A model generated the notes under the pieces. That model saw only the letters and a list, made by a program, of their open reading frames with translations. It had not been told where the DNA came from and did not search any database. Shown one piece after another: positions 51,749-64,000 of a stretch of 64,000 nt of DNA. The position numbers were made by a program, and so were the translations under genes. How positions within the stretch are numbered: the stretch's first letter is position 1; each line of letters starts with the position of its first letter. Source of the DNA: Spirochaetota bacterium (GTDB lineage: Bacteria > Spirochaetota > UBA12135 > COTS27 > CBDBHE01); assembly GCA_965205605.1 (NCBI GenBank), contig CBDBHE010000002.1:32001-96000 (forward strand), given 5' to 3'.

Positions 51749-52285
51749 ATGGAACATAAATGGTATATTATAAGGACGCATTCTGGGAAAGAATTTGCTG
51801 CAAAAAAAGCATTAGATAAAAAAATATTAGATGATAATTTTGAGGAAATTAAGGAAGTTGTTGTTCCTATTTATAAAGAGATTGTTTATAAAGATGGTAA
51901 AAAGAGAGAAGTTGAGAGAAAGTCTTTTCCGGGATATATCTATATTCATATGATTTTAGAAAAACAAGCGATTGCTTTTGTTAAGAATAGCCCTTATATT
52001 TCTGCCTTTATTCATCAAGGGGATTCTGTGCCTAGAGCTTTAAGCGACGCTGAAGCTAGAGGAATGTTTTCTAAAGAAGCGGATGAAACCTCAGATTTAA
52101 TATCTTCAGTACAAATTGATTTTGATGTGGGGCAAAAGGTTTTAATTATAGATGGGCCTTTCAATAATTTTTCAGGGACGATTAAAGAGATTTATCCAGA
52201 GAAAAGAAAAGTATGTGTGAATATTGCTATTTTTGGTCGGACGACTCCTGTTGAGATCGATTATTTTAAGGTTAAAAAGAATTAG
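51749..52285 (+). CDS. nusG: Transcription termination/antitermination factor NusG
   Basis: [19 protein letters not shown] motif [20 protein letters not shown]. Confidence 0.96.
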
Positions 52286-54398: not shown

Positions 54399-57300
54399 AT
54401 GCCATTAAGTGAACCTATAGAGGAATCAATTAAAAAAGTAAGGGAAGATATTTTAAAAAAGCATTATCTTTCTCAATATAATCGAGTGATGCTTTGGAAA
54501 AAAAAAGAAGGGTTTAAGCTTTCTAATCTTAATGATTTGCAACTTTCTTCTTTTAAAGATTTTTTTCAGGAAGAAATTGATCCACATAAAAGAAAAGATA
54601 TTGGTTTACAGTTTCTTTTTAATTCTGTTTTTCCTTTTAAGTCTACGGATGGGAAAGTACGTTTAGAGTTTAGTCATTATACAATTGGTGAAAAAAAATA
54701 TTCTAGAGAGGAATGTGTTTTAAAAGATTTGAGCTGTACGGTCCCGATTAAAGCAAGTATTAGCCTTATTTTAGAAGAGACAGGGGAAATTAAAGAGCAA
54801 GAGATTTATATTTGTGATGTTCCTTACATGACTCCAGATGGGACTTTTATTATTAATGGAGCAGAACGAGTTGTTGTTTCACAGATTCATAGGAGTCCTG
54901 GGGTTATTTTTGATTATAATCTTAGAGCCAATATGTTTCATTCTAGATTGATTCCTAATAGAGGTCCGTGGCTAGAATTTGAAATTGTTAAGGATATCTT
55001 GTATGTCAGGATTGACCGGAAAGCTCGTATTTTAGTTTCTACTTTTTTTAAAATATTAGATTTGAATAGTAAGGAAGAGGTTATTAGGACTTTTTCGAAA
55101 ACTGAAAAAATATCACTTGATGGTGGTTTGGAAGAAGTGAAGAAAAAACTATCTAATCGTTATATTGTTGAAAGCATTAAGAGTAAAGAGGAAGGCTTGC
55201 TTATAGAGTCTGGCGACTCGATTCTTCCTGAAGTAGTTAATTCTATTATGGATTTGGGTTTAAAAGAGATAGAGGTTGTTAGTTTAGAAGATGCTGATTT
55301 GTATGAGATTATTTTTAATACGTTAAACAAAGATACGAAGGAGCTTTCTAGAAAAGAAGCTTGTAGTTATATTTATTATATTCTTCGTGGTTCGGAGCCT
55401 ACTTTCTCGCAACTTGCGTATAATGAAATTATTTGTAGGTGGAAATGTAAAGAATGTGAAGAGATTTATGATGTTTTTGATCGACCTGATTTTTGCAAAA
55501 AATGTGGAGCTGATGAAACAACTTTTTTTCAGTGTGATAAGTCAATTTTTTTCAATTCTAATAATTATTCACTTGGTGAAGTAGGCCGTTATCGAATTAA
55601 TAAGAAGTTTAATTATGAAAAACCTGTCCAGTCAACTGTTTTAACGCCAAAAGATATTTATAGTACGGTTAAGCATTTGATTAAAGTTCATCGAAGAGAA
55701 GTTTCTGTTGATGATATTGATCATTTAGGTAATCGTCGCGTTAGGCGAGTAGGGGAACAGTTAGTCAATCATCTAAAAATCTGCTTTATGAGAATGGAGC
55801 GATTAGCTAAGGAGCGAATTACCATTCAAGATCATGATACCTTAACTCCTCAAAATTTAATTTCAATTAAGCCAATTACAGCGGGGATAAAAGAATTTTT
55901 TGGGACTGCTCAGCTATCTCAGTTTATGGATCAAACCAATCCGCTAGCAGCGATTACTCATAAAAGACGCCTTAATGCTTTAGGTCCAGGTGGGCTGACA
56001 AGAGAAAGGGCTGGTTTTGAGGTAAGGGATATTCATTACACTCATTACGGTAGGATGTGTCCTATTGAAACACCTGAAGGGCCTAATATTGGTTTGATTG
56101 TTTCTTTGGCTTCTTTTTCAAGGATTAATGATTATGGTTTTATAGAAACTCCTTATTATAAAGTAAAAAATGGAAAGATTTTAAATGAAATAGAGTATCT
56201 TTCTGCTATTGAAGAAGATCGTTATATTATCACTCCTTTTAGTGTTAATTTAGAAGAGGGGGGTAAAATTAAAGATGAATTGGTTCCTACTAGAAAAAGA
56301 GGAGACTATCCCATTAGTTATGCTAAAGATGTTAATTATATGGATGTTTCTCCTAAGCAAATTGTATCGATTTCTAGCTCTATTATTCCTTTTTTAGAGC
56401 ATGATGATGCAAATCGAGCTTTGATGGGCTCTAATATGCAAAGACAGGCAGTTCCTCTTTTGTTTCAAGAGGAGCCTATTGTAGGGACTGGAGTTGAAGA
56501 AGATATTGCAAAATATTCTGGGTTTTGTCAAGTAGCAAAAGAAGATGGGGAAGTTGTTGGAGTTGATAATGCTAAAATTGAAATTAAAGAAAACAAGAAA
56601 GGGGTTATTAAGCATTATAAGCTTGTAAAGTCGATTCGAACCAATCAAGACACTTATTATAATCAAAGACCTTCTGTTGCTTTGGGTGAAAAAGTTAAAA
56701 AAGGAGACATCATTAGTGATGGGCCTTCCATTAAAAATGGAGAACTTGCTTTAGGTAAAAATGTTTTAGTTGCTTTTATGACGTGGGAAGGCTACAACTT
56801 TGAAGATGCTATTTTAATGTCTAGAAGATTGATTAAAAATGATACGTATACATCGATTCATGTTGAAGAATTTGAAATTGAAGCTCGTGAAACGAAATTA
56901 GGTAAAGAGCAAATCACTAAAGACATTCCCAATGTTTCTGAAGATCAACTAAAAGATTTAGATAATGATGGGATTATCCATGTGGGTTCTTTTGTGAAAC
57001 CAGGGGGGATTTTAGTTGGCAAAATCACACCTAAGGGACATACAGAAGTGACACCAGAATATAAGCTATTGCATTCAATTTTTGGAGAAAAAGCAAGGGA
57101 TGTAAAAGATACTTCTCTTAGGGTTCCTCATGGGACTGAAGGAACAGTGGTTGATATTAAAAGATACGATCGAGAGACAAGAGGAGATTTGAAACCTGGA
57201 GTTATTGAACGTATTAAAGTGTATGTGATTAAAAAAAGAAGACTTAAAGAAGGTGATAAATTTGCAGGACGCCATGGGAATAAAGGGGTTGTTGCAAGAG

Positions 57301-57989
57301 TAATACCAGAAGAAGACATGCCTTTTTTAGAAGATGGTACTCCAATTGATATTGTTTTAAATCCTTTAGGAGTGCCTTCTAGGATGAATATAGGGCAAGT
57401 GTTTGAAACTGTTTTGGGGTGGGCAGGAAAATCATTAGGCCTTAAGTTTGGGACCCCCATTTTTAATGCTATTAGTTATGATAATATTTGCAATCTTTTA
57501 GAAAGATGTGATCTTCCAGCTAATGGTAAAGCAATTCTTTATGATGGGAGAAATGGAGAAGCTTTTAAAAAACCAGTTACAGTTGGGTATATGTATTATT
57601 TGAAATTGGCGCATTTAGCTGATGATAAGATTCATGCCAGGTCAACTGGGCCGTATTCTCTTGTCACGCAGCAACCTTTGGGTGGAAAAGCTCAATTTGG
57701 AGGGCAAAGAGTTGGAGAGATGGAGGTTTGGGCTATTGAAGCTTATGGGGCTTCTAATATTTTACAAGAATTTTTAACTGTTAAAGCAGATGCAATGGAA
57801 GGAAGGACTCGTATTTATGAAGCGATAGTTAAAGGGGAGTATATCTCTACTCCTGGTATACCAGAATCATTTAATGTATTAGTACAAGAGCTTAGAGGGC
57901 TTGCGCTTAATATTGAAATTTATGATGTGAATGGTAAAGAAATTAGTATTACACCTAAAAAAAAAAGAGATAAGAAAAAATTTATTTAG
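54399..57989 (+). CDS. rpoB: DNA-directed RNA polymerase subunit beta, with a Cys4 insertion
   Basis: [57 protein letters not shown]. Confidence 0.99.
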
Positions 57990-57999
57990 GATTAATTAA

Positions 58000-60900
58000 A
58001 TGCTTAATGATATCAATCAATATAATTATGATCGAATTAGAATAGGAGTTGCTTCTCCAGAACAAATTATAGCTTGGTCTTATGGTGAAGTACTTAGACC
58101 AGAAACAATTAATTATAGAACTTTAAGACCGGAAAAAGATGGTCTTTTTTGTGAAAGAATTTTTGGAACAACTAAAGAGTGGGAATGTTTTTGTGGTAAA
58201 TTCAAGAGCATTCGCTATAAAGGAGTGGTGTGTGATCGCTGTGGGGTTGAAGTGACTCATTTTAAAGTGCGTCGTGAAAGAATGGGGCATGTGGAGCTTT
58301 CAAGTCCTGTGGCCCATATTTGGTTTTATAAAGCAGTCCCTTCGAGAGTGGGGCTTTTATTAGATCTTTCTATTATTGGTCTTAAGTCAGTGATTTATTA
58401 TGAAAAATATATTGTAACGGATCCTGGGGAAGTAGGTGAAATTAAAAAAAATGATTTACTTTCAGAAGAAGAATATTATGAGCTAAGAAAAAAATATGGA
58501 GACGCTTTTCAAGCAGGAATTGGAGCTGAAGTAATCCGAGAAATGCTAATGGATCTTAACTTGGAAGAAGAAGCTATGGAGTTAAGAGAAAAAATGAATA
58601 CGGCTAAAAGTATTGATAAAAGAAAATTAGTACGTCTTAGCTTACTTGAAGATTTTATTAATTCTAATAATCGTCCAGAGTGGATGATATTGACGATTAT
58701 TCCCGTTATTCCCCCCGAGCTTCGTCCGATGGTTCAGCTAGAAGGGGGTCGTTTTGCAACTTCTGATATTAATGATCTATATAGAAGACTGATTAATCGA
58801 AATAATCGTTTAAAAAAATTGATTGCCTTAAAAGCTCCTGATATTATTATCAAAAATGAAAAAAGAATGCTTCAAGAAGCAGTGGATGCTCTATTAGATA
58901 ACTCGAGAAGAAGAACAACCGTTAAAGGAGTTGGAAATAGACCTTTGAAGTCACTTTCAGATGTGCTTAAAGGGAAGCAAGGGCGTTTTCGGCAGAATTT
59001 ACTTGGAAAAAGGGTGGATTATTCAGGTCGTTCGGTAATTGTTGTGGGTCCTGATTTAAAACTGCATCAGTGTGGCATCCCTAAAAAAATGGCCATTGAA
59101 CTTTTTAAGCCTTTTATTATGAGAAAATTAGTTGAAGAGAAAAGAGTTTTTAATATTAAAAGTGCTAAAAAACTTATTGACAGAGAACACCCAGAAGTTT
59201 GGAGTATTTTAGAAAGTGTTGTGAAAGAACATCCTGTTTTACTTAATAGAGCACCGACTCTTCATCGTTTGGGGATTCAGGCTTTTGAGCCCTTACTAAC
59301 AGATGAAAAAGCAATTAGGCTGCACCCCATGGTTTGTACAGCTTATAATGCTGATTTTGATGGGGATCAGATGGCCGTTCATGTGCCTCTAAGTTCGGAA
59401 GCTCAAATTGAAGCTTGGACATTGATGCTTTCTTCTAAGAATTTATTAGATCCAGCTAATGGAGAACCTATTGTTAACCCTTCTCAAGATATGGTTTTAG
59501 GGGCTTATAATTTAACGATGTTGAAAAAAAATATTTTAGGAGAAGGGAAAATGTTTGGTTCTAAAGAAGAGGTTATTAAAGCTTATGAAAATAACAGCAT
59601 TGAGCTTCAGGCAAAAATAAGGCTTTATAATCAATCTAAAAAAAAATTTATTGCAACTTCTCCAGGAAGGCTTATCTTTAGTGAGATTTTGCCTAAAAAA
59701 CACCCATTAATTGATGAAGTTTTAGATGAGAAGGCTTTAAAAAGATTAGTATCAACCATTTGTAAGCAATATGGAGATTATCAAACCGTCATTGTGCTCG
59801 ATGCGCTTAAGGATCTTTGCTTTCATTATTCAACTATTTTTAGTAATACTATATCGGTTTCAGATATTTTGATTCCAAAAGCTAAAAAGAAACTCGTTGG
59901 AAAAAGTGAAAAAGAAGTTTTGCAAATAAATGAACAATATCGTAATGGGATTTTAACAGACGAAGAGCGTTATCAAAAAACAATTTCTGTTTGGACTTTT
60001 ACCAATGATCAAATTACTAAAGAAATGATTAATGAGCTTGAAAAAGATAAAGATGGGACCAATGACCTTTATATTATGTCTATTTCTGGAGCGAGGGGAA
60101 GCAAACAACAAATTAGACAGCTTGCTGGTATGAGAGGACTGATGGCAAGACCGTCAGGGGATATTATTGACTTGCCTATTGTTTCTAATTTTAAAGAAGG
60201 ACTTACTGTTTTAGAATATTTTATCTCTACTCATGGAGCTAGAAAAGGACTTTCAGATACAGCTCTTAAAACAGCAGATGCAGGTTATCTAACTAGAAAG
60301 CTTGTTGATATTGCCCAAGATGTTACTGTCGAAATGGAAGACTGCGGTACGATTAGTGGAATTGATATCTATCCTATAAAGGTAGGAGATGAGGTCATAG
60401 AAAAACTTTCGGAGAGAATTATAGGTCGCTACACAGCTTTGCCTATAGTTAATCCGTATACAGAGGAAGTTATTTTAAAAGCTGATGAAATGATTATAGA
60501 GGAAATTGGAAAAAAAATTGATGAACTTGAAATTGATCATGTAAAAATTAGAACTGTAGTGACTTGTGAATCTCCAAAAGGAATTTGTCAAAAATGTTAT
60601 GGACTTAATCTTGCAAATAATTTACTTGTTGATATTGGAGAACCAGTTGGGATTTTAGCTTCTCAGTCTATAGGTCAACCAGGAACTCAGTTAACAATGC
60701 GTACTTTTCATATTGGAGGGACGGCTTCTTCTGAAGTTAAAAATCCAGAGTTTAAACTTCCAAATGATTCTGTTGTTGTAGAATTACCTGCAAATATGAT
60801 TCGAAATAAAATCAATAAATTAGTAATTCCTAGAAGAGGGAAAATGTCTGTTGCCACAGTTTTTCAATTTTTTAAAGAAAGTGAATTTAAAAAAATTAAA

Positions 60901-62229
60901 GTTAAAGATGGGCAAAGAGTTAAAAAAGGTGATTTGATTGGTGAAAAAAAAGATGGGAATCAAGTTGAGGCTAAAAAAATTGGATTTATCAAGGTAGATA
61001 AAACTAAAGATCAAATTCTTTTAATAGGGATTAAATATAAACTTCCTTTAGAAGTAGGGGGAGTTTTTCAAAAAGAAATAGGTTCATTAGTTTTAAAAAA
61101 TGAAGTTATTTATCGTTTTGACCCTATTACAGAACCTATTATTTCTGAAAATTCGGGAGTTGTTTGCTATCAAGACATTATTTTAAATAAAACACTTAAA
61201 GAAGAAATTGATGATTATACAGGGGTTGTTATTAAAAAAATTATTGAATCTAAAGAAGAACACTTACAACCCAAACTTATTATTGTTCCTAGTGAAGGAG
61301 AATCAATTGAAGCTGATCTTCCTGCAGGGGCGATTCTTCAAAAAGCAGATGGTAGTACTGTTGAAGCAGGTGAAATCATTGCTGGAAAAACAAGAACCGC
61401 TCAAAAAACAACAGATATTACAGGAGGCTTGCCAAGAGTACAAGAGCTTTTTGAAGCAAGAAATCCCGTTGATGTTGCTGTTATTGCAGAGCTTTCAGGG
61501 ATTGTTGAAATAGGTGCTACTTTTAAAGGAAAGCGTCAAATTCTTATTAAAAATGAATTTGATGATTCTATTAAACATGTTGTTTCTTCGGGAAAAGTAT
61601 TGGCTGTTCGTAATGGAGACTATGTTAATGTAGGAGAACCTATTTGTGATGGAAGCTTAAACCCTCATGACATACTAAGGGTGAGTGGAGAAATTGCAGT
61701 TTATCGTTTTATTTTAGAAAATGTTCAAGAAGTCTATAAAAGGCAAGGAGTTAGTATTAATGACAAGCATGTTGGTTTAATTATAAGGCAAATGCTTAGA
61801 AAAGTTGAAATTATTGATCCAGGGGACACTCCTTATATCAAAGGAGAGTTGATTGATAAATATCGACTTCGAATTGAAAATAAAGCTGTTATCGAAGAAG
61901 GTGGTCAGCCAGCAGTTGCTCAGACAATTCTTTTAGGTCTCACAAAGGCTTCTCTTAATACAGAAAGCTTTATATCCTCTGCTTCGTTTCAAGAAACAAC
62001 TAAAGTTTTAACAAATGCAGCGATTAAAAATTCTTTTGATGAACTTAGAGGCTTAAAGGAAAATGTTATCATCGGTCAAAAAATCCCAGCAGGAACAGGA
62101 AAAATTTATTACGAAAAAGTCAATGTTTACAAAAGCGTTTATGGAGACTTGGATTTTATTGGCGCTGAGGATGATGATGTCGATTCAACGACTCTAAAAG
62201 AACAGCAGAAAATTTTTGAAAAAACTTAA
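58000..62229 (+). CDS. rpoC: DNA-directed RNA polymerase subunit beta-prime
   Basis: N-terminal Zn ribbon, [21 protein letters not shown] followed by a large trigger-loop insert, SASFQETT. Confidence 0.99.
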
Positions 62230-62272: not shown

Positions 62273-63082
62273 TTGAAATTTTACTTGTTAAATTTTTTTA
62301 AAAAAAAAGATAATAATGATTTAAGTATTAATCAAATTAGGCAACAAATAGAAGAAGAATATAAAAAAAATGCTACTCTTTATGGTTCTTTTGCTTTTAA
62401 CATACAACCTTTTTATGTTCGATATCAAAAGATCTTAAGTCAAGATGAAAAAACTTTAAAAAATTTCCTTATTTCAGAATTAGAAGCTCTTCAAGCTTAT
62501 GTTGAAAAAATCAAAGAAAAACCCCCTTCTTCCTCTCTAGACAAAATAGAAAAAAAATCTGTAATTCAAAAAATATATGATGGCTATGATGAAAGATTAA
62601 AAAAATACCCTCAAATATTTTTGCATTCAAGTGCTTTTAAAGAAATAGAACATCTTTATGGTTGCTTGATTCAGTTTCATGAAAGTCATACTCATAATTT
62701 TTTTAAAATAAGATCTCTTTTAACACGTCCTTATGAACAGCAATTTTATTTAGATTTAGAAGTTTTTATTAATGAACTCTTTCCATTATTATCAAGTAAA
62801 AAAGCCATTGCTTTTGAAAATTATATTTTTGAAATAACAAAATATCAAAATGATCAGGAAAAAATTGAAGCATTAGGACAAATCGTGTTAAAAAAAACAT
62901 TTCATATGATGAAAGCAATAAAAAAATTACTTGATTTTTTAAAAATAGAATTAGAAAGAAGAATTTCTACAATTAATTTTGTTTATAAAAAAAAAGCTTT
63001 GAAATTTTCAGAATATGAAGACGCTCTTAGAACAGAATGTGATCAAATTCTTAAAGACTTTAGACTTACAGGTTTTTTTTAA
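62273..63082 (+). CDS. Hypothetical protein
   Basis: 269-aa helical ORF with KYP.I.LH..A..EI..LYG and terminal I.KDFRL motifs; no function recognised. Confidence 0.6.
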   Translation: MKFYLLNFFKKKDNNDLSINQIRQQIEEEYKKNATLYGSFAFNIQPFYVRYQKILSQDEKTLKNFLISELEALQAYVEKIKEKPPSSSLDKIEKKSVIQKIYDGYDERLKKYPQIFLHSSAFKEIEHLYGCLIQFHESHTHNFFKIRSLLTRPYEQQFYLDLEVFINELFPLLSSKKAIAFENYIFEITKYQNDQEKIEALGQIVLKKTFHMMKAIKKLLDFLKIELERRISTINFVYKKKALKFSEYEDALRTECDQILKDFRLTGFF

Positions 63083-63108: not shown

Positions 63109-64000
63109 TTGAAACATCTTTCTTTTCTTTTGTTTTTTTGTTTGTTTTTTTCTTGTTTTAAAAATGCTCAAGACTTAGCTCTTTATAAAAACATTATTCC
63201 TCAGGAAGAAACCGTTAATGCTTCTTTAATGCATTATGAAATTTTATGCAAGAAGATTCAATTGTTGTATGAAAAAAAAGCCTATTACGAAGTTTTTTCT
63301 AATATTGATTTTTATTATAAAATTTTTAATCAAGATGATGATAATGATTTTATAGATTATTATTTAGGTAAAACAATTAACCATGTCATTAATGAAAAAG
63401 AATTTTTTTATCATATGGAAAAAATGGATTCTAATTTAAGATTTGTTTATGCTGTTAGAAAAAACAAAGTAAATAAAAAAAACCTTTTAGTTTACACAAA
63501 CACTCATTTTTTAAAAATTATTCAGGAAAAAAATAATTATGAAATTGAAAAAAAAGCAATGAGGGAAATTTTAAAAAATGATTTTAAAAAATTAGAATAT
63601 TTATCAGGTCTTAAGATTAAATCAGGGCAAATTGACTGGGTATTGAAGCGTTATCCTGATTTGATAAAGGATTTAAAAGAGTTGGTTGTAAATGAAAACT
63701 TCAATTTACTTTCTTTGCAATCAAAAGAAATTGCAGATTTTTTAAAACTTTATGAAAGCAATCACCAAGGTTTTGCCCTTATTGCTTTCTCAAAAAATTA
63801 TTTTAATATTCTTCGAAATAGAATGCACTCAATTCGTTCTAGAAACTTATTAAAATTAGAACTTTGGGAACCTATTACTGTTATTGGAAAAAATTTGATA
63901 GGGGAAGATGGTGAAAAATGGTGTTATGTTAAGGGGCATTTAGGTATTAAAGGGTATGTTTTGCAAAAAAGTTTGTTGTTTTTAACAGATGAGAAAGAGT
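63109..64000 (+). CDS. Putative lipoprotein with C-terminal SH3b-like domain (runs off the window; missing from the ORF track)
   Basis: Frame is open from TTG 63109 to the window end; MKHLSFLLFFCLFFSC signal and lipobox; C-terminal PITVIG......GEKWCYVK...GIKGYV. Confidence 0.7.
   Translation, partial: MKHLSFLLFFCLFFSCFKNAQDLALYKNIIPQEETVNASLMHYEILCKKIQLLYEKKAYYEVFSNIDFYYKIFNQDDDNDFIDYYLGKTINHVINEKEFFYHMEKMDSNLRFVYAVRKNKVNKKNLLVYTNTHFLKIIQEKNNYEIEKKAMREILKNDFKKLEYLSGLKIKSGQIDWVLKRYPDLIKDLKELVVNENFNLLSLQSKEIADFLKLYESNHQGFALIAFSKNYFNILRNRMHSIRSRNLLKLELWEPITVIGKNLIGEDGEKWCYVKGHLGIKGYVLQKSLLFLTDEKE

Follow-up and report, generated by a model that had tools for sequence, protein, structure and literature searches.

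A predicted rubredoxin-like Cys4 insert in the RNA polymerase beta lobe of one small order of Spirochaetota

The catalogued insertions of the bacterial RNA polymerase (RNAP) beta subunit are larger domains of the BEAN and BBM types. To our knowledge, structural zinc in bacterial RNAP is found solely in beta-prime, at two sites, and beta carries no metal site. RNAP subunits of archaea and eukaryotes carry zinc ribbons. In this study, we analysed a stretch of 64,000 nucleotides from a Spirochaetota bacterium (assembly GCA_965205605.1, contig CBDBHE010000002.1, positions 32,001 to 96,000; hereafter the window), in which the beta subunit gene rpoB encodes an insert of 36 residues with two cysteine pairs in the beta lobe. 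From its sequence and predicted structure, we conclude that the insert is probably a rubredoxin-like Cys4 knuckle. Like the zinc sites of multisubunit RNAPs, it would be a small Cys4 knuckle on the polymerase surface; unlike them, it lies in bacterial beta and is limited to one order. A lineage-specific RNAP insertion with this fold class and predicted metal site appears to be unreported for bacterial beta.

The 2024 survey of RNAP insertions (Alvarez-Carreno et al., PMC11515920) classed the beta insertions as BEAN domains and described two insertion sites within the domain that holds Si1 of E. coli; the words zinc, rubredoxin, ribbon, cysteine and spirochaet do not occur in its text. The accessible part of a preprint on spirochaetal RNAP (10.64898/2026.02.09.704077) reported Si1 and Si3 in Spirochaeta africana and described nothing at the site of the insert. 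The full-text literature search, which covered sources other than the Lane and Darst 2010 catalogue, turned up no paper on a bacterial beta insert of the Cys4, zinc or rubredoxin-like type. Within this scope, it bore out an initial annotation of the window, made from the sequence, which knew of no such module among the described beta insertions. Like Si1 and Si2 of E. coli and the BEAN domains, the insert is an extra, fast-evolving surface domain of the lobe whose distribution follows phylogeny. Unlike them, it has just 36 residues, is rich in cysteine and is predicted to be rubredoxin-like. BEAN domains (CATH 3.90.105.10) have about 100 residues, and the insert was set apart from them by its length and its fold matches. 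When the insert was searched by itself with Foldseek, the 50 best matches contained no RNAP chain.

The host gene, the insert and its cysteines are located in the window as follows.

54399..57989, + strand: rpoB, RNA polymerase beta subunit, 1196 aa, host of the insert (open reading frame, translation, Pfam, similarity to solved chains)
55434..55541, + strand: predicted Cys4 rubredoxin-like insert, 36 residues, RpoB 346-381 (translation; gap in RpoBs outside the order)
55446..55457, + strand: first cysteine knuckle, C350-K-E-C353 (pair aligned in 14 of 17 insert-bearing sequences)
55494..55505, + strand: second cysteine knuckle, C366-K-K-C369, followed by G370 (both Cys present in 13 of 17)
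55434..55436, + strand: extra cysteine C346 in the N-terminal neck of the insert (common to relative P0004 only)
55533..55535, + strand: extra cysteine C379 in the C-terminal neck of the insert (common to P0004 only)

The identity of the host protein was clear. The Pfam Rpb2 domains 1, 2, 3, 45, 6 and 7 scored 52.9-441.8 bits, all six over the gathering cut-off, and more than 40 solved RpoB sequences matched at E = 0 with full-length similarity. The phmmer alignment to the solved chain 7ye1_C paired query residue 336 with residue 385, at the end of the rpgeppt motif, and query residue 381 with residue 394. Between these conserved blocks 7ye1_C has 8 residues and the query has 44, so that the query is longer by 36. 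The same query residue 381 paired with residue 386 in E. coli beta (10ma_I). In the MAFFT alignment of 30 Spirochaetota RpoBs, the insert columns were filled in eight same-order sequences and formed a clean gap in the 22 others. The initial annotation had proposed about 36 extra residues in the beta lobe between two blocks that are contiguous in typical RpoB, and both parts agreed with the phmmer and MAFFT alignments. Its numbering (C346, C350, C353, C366, C369 and C379; DNA 55434-55541) and its sequence were likewise correct on translation of 55374-55601. The spacing is CxxC-x12-CxxC, with C350/C353 as the first pair and C366/C369 as the second; P363 stands three residues ahead of C366 and F376 seven past C369, at the offsets originally given.

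An assembly or annotation artefact, that is, a chimeric join or a frameshifted stretch, was considered and rejected. The insert is in frame inside an uninterrupted open reading frame (ORF) of 1196 aa, and homologous in-frame inserts occur in eight other species genomes of the order and in eight further metagenomic RpoBs. In run X1, one contig covered 55000-56000 with zero differences, and this run is possibly the window's own source. Run X2 comes from a further sample in that study, and two of its pieces, each of 151 bases (55324-55474 and 55493-55643), matched with zero differences; they span both insert junctions and leave 55475-55492 uncovered. The read support that the initial annotation called for was thereby found, with contigs from two samples identical across both junctions. 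The relatives give the reality of the insert greater weight than the reads. Given the homologues across the order and the contigs of the second sample, we regard an artefact as next to inconceivable.

Structure prediction showed a confidently folded insert. The AlphaFold2 model of residues 140-470 (29-row alignment) had a mean predicted local distance difference test score (pLDDT) of 87.7, with blocks of 94-97 over the insert (about 96). Modelled alone (residues 343-385, 9-row alignment), the insert reached a pLDDT of 83, with short strands on each side of the knuckles. The ESM Atlas matches of residues 343-385 scored 0.81-0.82, were RpoB clusters throughout and gave no further information. 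A Foldseek search of the PDB with the insert alone gave the rubredoxin-like domain of 4tpu as the top match (E 0.021; TM-score by query, TMq, 0.75; root-mean-square deviation, rmsd, 1.0 Å over 35 columns). It was followed by the rubrerythrins 1b71, 1ryt, 9fj2 and 1nnq, by a large number of rubredoxins and of fusion constructs with rubredoxin, and further down by minichromosome maintenance (MCM) zinc fingers. The best matches had TMq 0.65-0.78 and rmsd 1.0-2.3 Å (1b71 and 1ryt, TMq 0.75-0.78 and rmsd 1.5-1.7 Å). The best 50 rows (TMq 0.57-0.78) were mostly rubredoxin-like domains or rubredoxin fusions, and with this 43-residue query the best E-value was 0.021 and none was <= 0.001. Rubredoxin-like domains led the rows, as the initial annotation had expected, but with E-values of 0.02 or weaker.

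The initial annotation had named the insert a rubrerythrin-type rubredoxin module. The insert shares with the rubrerythrin C-terminal domain (PF21349, RUBY_RBDX) and with rubredoxins the W-x-CxxC-x12-CxxC-G spacing, the proline before the third cysteine and an aromatic residue after the fourth. The spacing, the proline and the predicted fold therefore spoke for the match, but family membership did not follow: PF21349 scored 12.1 bits on the whole protein, 17.7 bits in a 76-aa piece and 19.0 bits on the insert alone, below its gathering cut-off of 26.5 bits. Unlike rubrerythrin, the insert lies inside RpoB, is not fused C-terminally to a diiron ferritin-like domain with its four-helix bundle, and is flanked by RpoB lobe sequence; its metal may be iron or zinc. 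Among nine inserts, Pfam matches at E <= 0.1 were to HypA (4/9), RUBY_RBDX (3/9) and Zn_ribbon_8 (3/9). The resemblance, as judged from sequence, is to Cys4 knuckles generally rather than to the rubrerythrin family in particular.

Profile comparisons gave a similar picture. The hhalign comparison of the insert with the rubredoxin-like domain of a flavoprotein fusion from spirochaete genome G280 had a probability of 97% over 29 columns, and proteins with tandem WRCxxCGYIH...CPVCGA repeats matched the insert-region profile with E 3e-6 and 7e-4. In the PDB profile search, the best rubredoxin was 1yk5 (E 0.0016), and ribbons of the Rpb12 and TFIIS types were among the weak matches (E 0.18-0.98). 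Polydactyl C2H2 fingers took the top rows of that search and were judged spurious, being built up from a KPxxCxxCG-like motif that recurs many times and weakly. When all six-frame ORFs of the insert's own genome were searched with a profile of it, RpoB itself was found (E 1.6e-17) and no donor; the second match was a small CxxC...CxxC ORF (E 0.004). The RpoB insert was also the sole match of PF21349 in that genome (17.9 bits). The two pairs would bind one metal, and the sequence and fold data are compatible with either Fe or Zn.

In the phylum sample, no protein other than RpoB matched the insert more closely in sequence than the G280 fusion, locus L121 (G280:C11:587500-591500). It is an 884-aa ORF with a mid-protein rubredoxin-like domain (RRWKCLVCGEVFDGLEPPDICPACGAKKEMF). 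In our reading of the sequence, its N-terminal flank would be metallo-beta-lactamase/flavodoxin-like and its C-terminal flank pyridine-nucleotide oxidoreductase-like, as in a flavodiiron-type fusion.

The insert appears to be restricted to one small order of Spirochaetota. A homologous in-frame insert was present in all nine species genomes assigned to the order of the window, several of them single-contig assemblies. The class comprises ten species genomes, and its sister order is represented by one, G009, whose RpoB lacks the insert and reads ...EMAKKEIF followed directly by NLFFSPTVYNLGKVGRY. In the first alignment, none of the 21 other Spirochaetota RpoBs carried it. Among 400 genomes sampled across the phylum, matches from outside the order started at about query residue 67, in the flank after the insert, with three exceptions that were examined. 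Two of these longer-reaching matches, G051 and G364, were rejected as carriers since their RpoBs lack the insert, and the third, G280, is a different protein. This is the pattern of a lineage-specific RNAP insertion: one clade has the insert, its sisters lack it, and the flanks are contiguous elsewhere.

Wider searches pointed the same way. The profile run against 1.84 billion representatives found one further insert-bearing RpoB fragment, P0004, the remainder being flanks or rubredoxin-like repeats. Against 5.8 billion clustered proteins, with 8000 candidates scored, a profile search found 14 RpoBs at E <= 1e-8, all from this clade. A word-index search returned the query itself as its sole match. 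The scan of genome contigs, whose matches crowded on the conserved VGRYKINKK flank, gave one in-clade locus among the matches listed; the other matches listed were mostly from Bacteroidota, and the eight of these that were examined all lacked the insert.

Variation within the clade was analysed with 18 distinct RpoBs, after the near-duplicates P0013, P0015, P0017 and P0018 (at least 98% identical to L007, L006, L008 and L003, respectively) had been dropped. The insert was present in 17 of the 18. Two cysteine pairs were found in 13 of these 17, ten of them as CxxC/CxxC, with a Cx4C first knuckle in G001 and P0019 and a Cx4C second knuckle in P0004. Spacers of 14 and 22 residues between the knuckles occurred in some relatives in the alignment. 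The cysteine pairs were in register, and the aromatic residues, the proline ahead of the third cysteine and the glycine after the fourth were conserved beside them. Genome G005 has three cysteines, the first pair and the first of the second pair. G004, P0021 and P0022 have none, yet they retain the R-W start, the aromatic positions, the proline and the D-K-S exit. The initial annotation expected the four cysteines to be conserved in relatives, and this was true of the 13 with two pairs but not of the one with three or of the three with none. Zinc-ribbon ribosomal proteins also occur in Cys-containing and Cys-less forms in related lineages, and the insert resembles them in being the same small domain with and without cysteines; the likeness is an analogy, with no claim of homology or of a link to metal supply.

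Mean pairwise identity was 0.29 in the insert, 0.25 in the Si1-like region, 0.56-0.67 in the lobe and 0.72 in the core, and the net charge of the insert ranged from -4 to +5 across relatives. The extra cysteines C346 and C379, one in each neck of the insert, are common only to the nearest relative, P0004. Three genomes of family f4 (G003, G006 and G008) have an extra cysteine one position later, in a PC[YF]xCxxC pattern. The extra neck cysteines might provide a fifth ligand or pair up in a disulfide.

The clade member without the insert, P0024, is a metagenomic RpoB of 1150 aa on an 8376-base contig. It reads ...AINEIIGKKSIFF..., and its junction ...NEIIGKKSIFF... indicates a clean loss. A quick maximum-likelihood tree of 28 rows, calculated with the insert columns excluded and with support from the Shimodaira-Hasegawa-like approximate likelihood ratio test (SH-aLRT), united the 18 clade members in a single group, with G009 as its sister (SH-aLRT 99). 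P0024 had the longest in-clade branch (0.76) and was nested within the clade, beneath branches with support of 93 and 97. The Cys-less G004 was sister to the Cys4 sequence P0020 (98), P0021 and P0022 were paired (88), and G005 was paired with the Cys4 genome G007 (85). The simplest history that these sequences suggest is one gain, at least three independent cysteine erosions and one secondary deletion.

The insert starts ten residues past a short conserved motif.

55386..55403, + strand: gate-loop motif RGSEPT, residues 330-335 (aligned to rpgeppt of 7ye1_C)

We take the RGSEPT/rpgeppt motif to be the beta gate loop. Sigma and the non-template strand contact this element across the main cleft. 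According to published papers, the gate loop lies within the beta lobe, across the cleft from the clamp helices, and contacts the NusG N-terminal (NGN) domain of NusG and RfaH. In the AlphaFold2 model, the motif is a turn between helices 318-330 and 337-344, and the insert comes right after the second, eight-residue helix. Because it directly follows this short helix, the insert should be no more than a few tens of angstroms away from the tip of the gate loop. The initial annotation had placed it in the beta lobe near the downstream DNA channel. The lobe stood, but the site is better given as one short helix past the gate-loop motif, in the lobe that walls the cleft. It coincides neither with the Si1-like variable region (residues about 232-318) nor with the insertion of 8i23_C, which phmmer placed about 25 residues downstream (query 406 paired with chain residue 280, and 415 with 397).

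The gate-loop motif itself varies in the phylum. It is RGSEP, RGNRP, KGxQA or similar in the order, mostly of the RPGEP type in the other aligned Spirochaetota, and IRSNEA in G009 of the sister order. The gate-loop change is seen in the same lineage that gained the insert.

Two further transcription genes lie near rpoB in the window.

58000..62229, + strand: rpoC, beta-prime, 1409 aa (ORF; Cys clusters typical of beta-prime zinc sites)
51749..52285, + strand: nusG (Pfam NusG and KOW over cut-off)

The Cys clusters of rpoC are presumably the canonical beta-prime zinc sites. In other bacteria, the NGN domain of NusG docks on the gate loop (published papers). Directly past rpoC, a 269-aa ORF (62273-63082, + strand) had no Pfam match at E <= 0.001, and the ORF at 63109-63999, open at the window end, had a sub-threshold DHHA2 match (20.5 vs 27 bits). 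The genes rpsL-rpsG-fusA, which usually come after rpoC, do not follow it here. Elsewhere in the phylum, three Spirochaetota RpoBs of about 1280 aa (L015, L016 and L030, in G040, G027 and G012) have about 110 extra residues in the Si1-like lobe region, whose length in them is 417-421 vs about 300-330. At locus L013 (G028:C4:485338-486301), the N-terminal third of rpoB was weakly matched (27% identity); the matched stretch contained 16 stop codons, and the long ORF at the locus had 893 aa. The rpoB gene there may be broken, split or misassembled, and the locus was left out of alignment A2.

We propose that the insert is a lineage-specific beta insertion domain that was probably gained once, at the base of one small Spirochaetota order. 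The 36-residue module would fold as a rubredoxin or zinc ribbon round one metal held by C350, C353, C366 and C369, and would leave the beta lobe where the short helix past the gate-loop motif ends. This would place it on the surface adjoining the element that NusG contacts. The metal would chiefly hold a very small domain in shape, and the module would most likely add or reshape a protein-contact surface at the gate-loop side rather than bind nucleic acid. A structural role of the metal is preferred to an essential chemical one because the cysteines were lost in G004 and in P0021/P0022, and one was lost in G005, while the scaffold was retained. A surface protein module is preferred to a nucleic-acid contact because the sequence identity is as low as in the Si1-like region and the charge varies. 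Since Cys-less forms persist and one lineage deleted the insert, the metal would be structural and the module useful but not indispensable. As a whole, the reading as a structural metal knuckle that remodels or enlarges the cleft on its gate-loop side is, in our judgement, somewhat better than an even bet. We are more confident than that of the identity of the knuckle and far less confident of its role, including any effect that it may have on transcription.

Several observations weigh against this proposal. All Foldseek E-values were 0.02 or weaker, which is expected because the query has only 43 residues. The Pfam scan of the insert matched many Cys4 families, all below threshold. The insert-less P0024 and the three Cys-less members suggest that some lineages can do without the module. 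The top fold matches are iron proteins and do not in themselves speak for structural zinc. A comparison of NusG found no indel specific to the order, such as a co-evolved partner might show.

Some of the same observations could be explained by a tolerated, essentially neutral surface insertion, in which a small self-folding Cys4 knuckle came to lie in a permissive loop and would persist since clean removal is rare, not for any contribution to transcription. The low sequence conservation (0.29), the varying length and knuckle spacing (the Cx4C variants and the longer spacers), the erosion of cysteines in 4 of 17 sequences, the clean deletion in one nested lineage and the lack of a co-varying indel in NusG are all consistent with this. 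However, 17 of the 18 distinct clade sequences retain the insert although RpoB identity falls to about 60%, and the aromatic residues, proline, glycine and D-K-S exit of the scaffold are conserved even in Cys-less forms. The very confident structure prediction and the change of the adjoining gate-loop motif in the order also argue for more than a neutral loop. We hold a neutral insertion to be unlikely, and rank it after the structural knuckle and before a redox function of the metal.

The iron proteins among the fold matches bear on that redox function, in which a rubredoxin-type Fe(Cys)4 centre would be a built-in redox, oxygen or iron sensor: on oxidation or loss of the iron, the conformation of the lobe and gate loop would shift, and with it initiation or elongation. 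Rubrerythrin, rubredoxin and the 4tpu domain are the nearest fold matches, the nearest non-RpoB sequence matches are the rubredoxin-like domains of the spirochaete flavoprotein fusion and of the tandem repeat proteins, and further cysteines stand in the necks of this insert and of its nearest relative P0004. However, MCM zinc fingers matched as well, and Fe and Zn are inseparable by sequence or fold; PF21349 stayed below its cut-off (19.0 vs 26.5), with three of nine inserts matching at E <= 0.1; and the PF21349 scan found no other rubrerythrin-type domain in the genome. The three or more cysteine losses and the one insert loss within the clade weigh against an indispensable sensor but leave room for one in the lineages that keep four cysteines. 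A redox or iron sensor is thus possible but less likely, and we give it an outside chance. That the beta lobe holds a third, redox-active RNAP metal centre, an Fe(Cys)4 site beside the gate loop, seems more doubtful still. If it does, cleft closure, the docking of NusG or sigma, or pausing would be tuned by the oxidation state of the centre or by its occupancy with iron, and these spirochaetes, most of them anaerobic or host-associated, would have a core enzyme that is itself an oxygen or iron sensor.

As an RNAP insertion, a Cys4 knuckle in the beta lobe would differ in kind from those catalogued. Were the metal iron, no earlier redox centre would be known from the core RNAP of bacteria. With plain structural zinc and no measurable effect, the insert would lengthen the list of lineage-specific insertions modestly and mark the order cleanly in phylogenies. 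Its site beside the gate loop, which is used by the universal factor NusG/Spt5, would make the clade a natural experiment on remodelling the lobe side of the cleft, for which the Cys4, Cys-less and insert-less forms supply ready controls.

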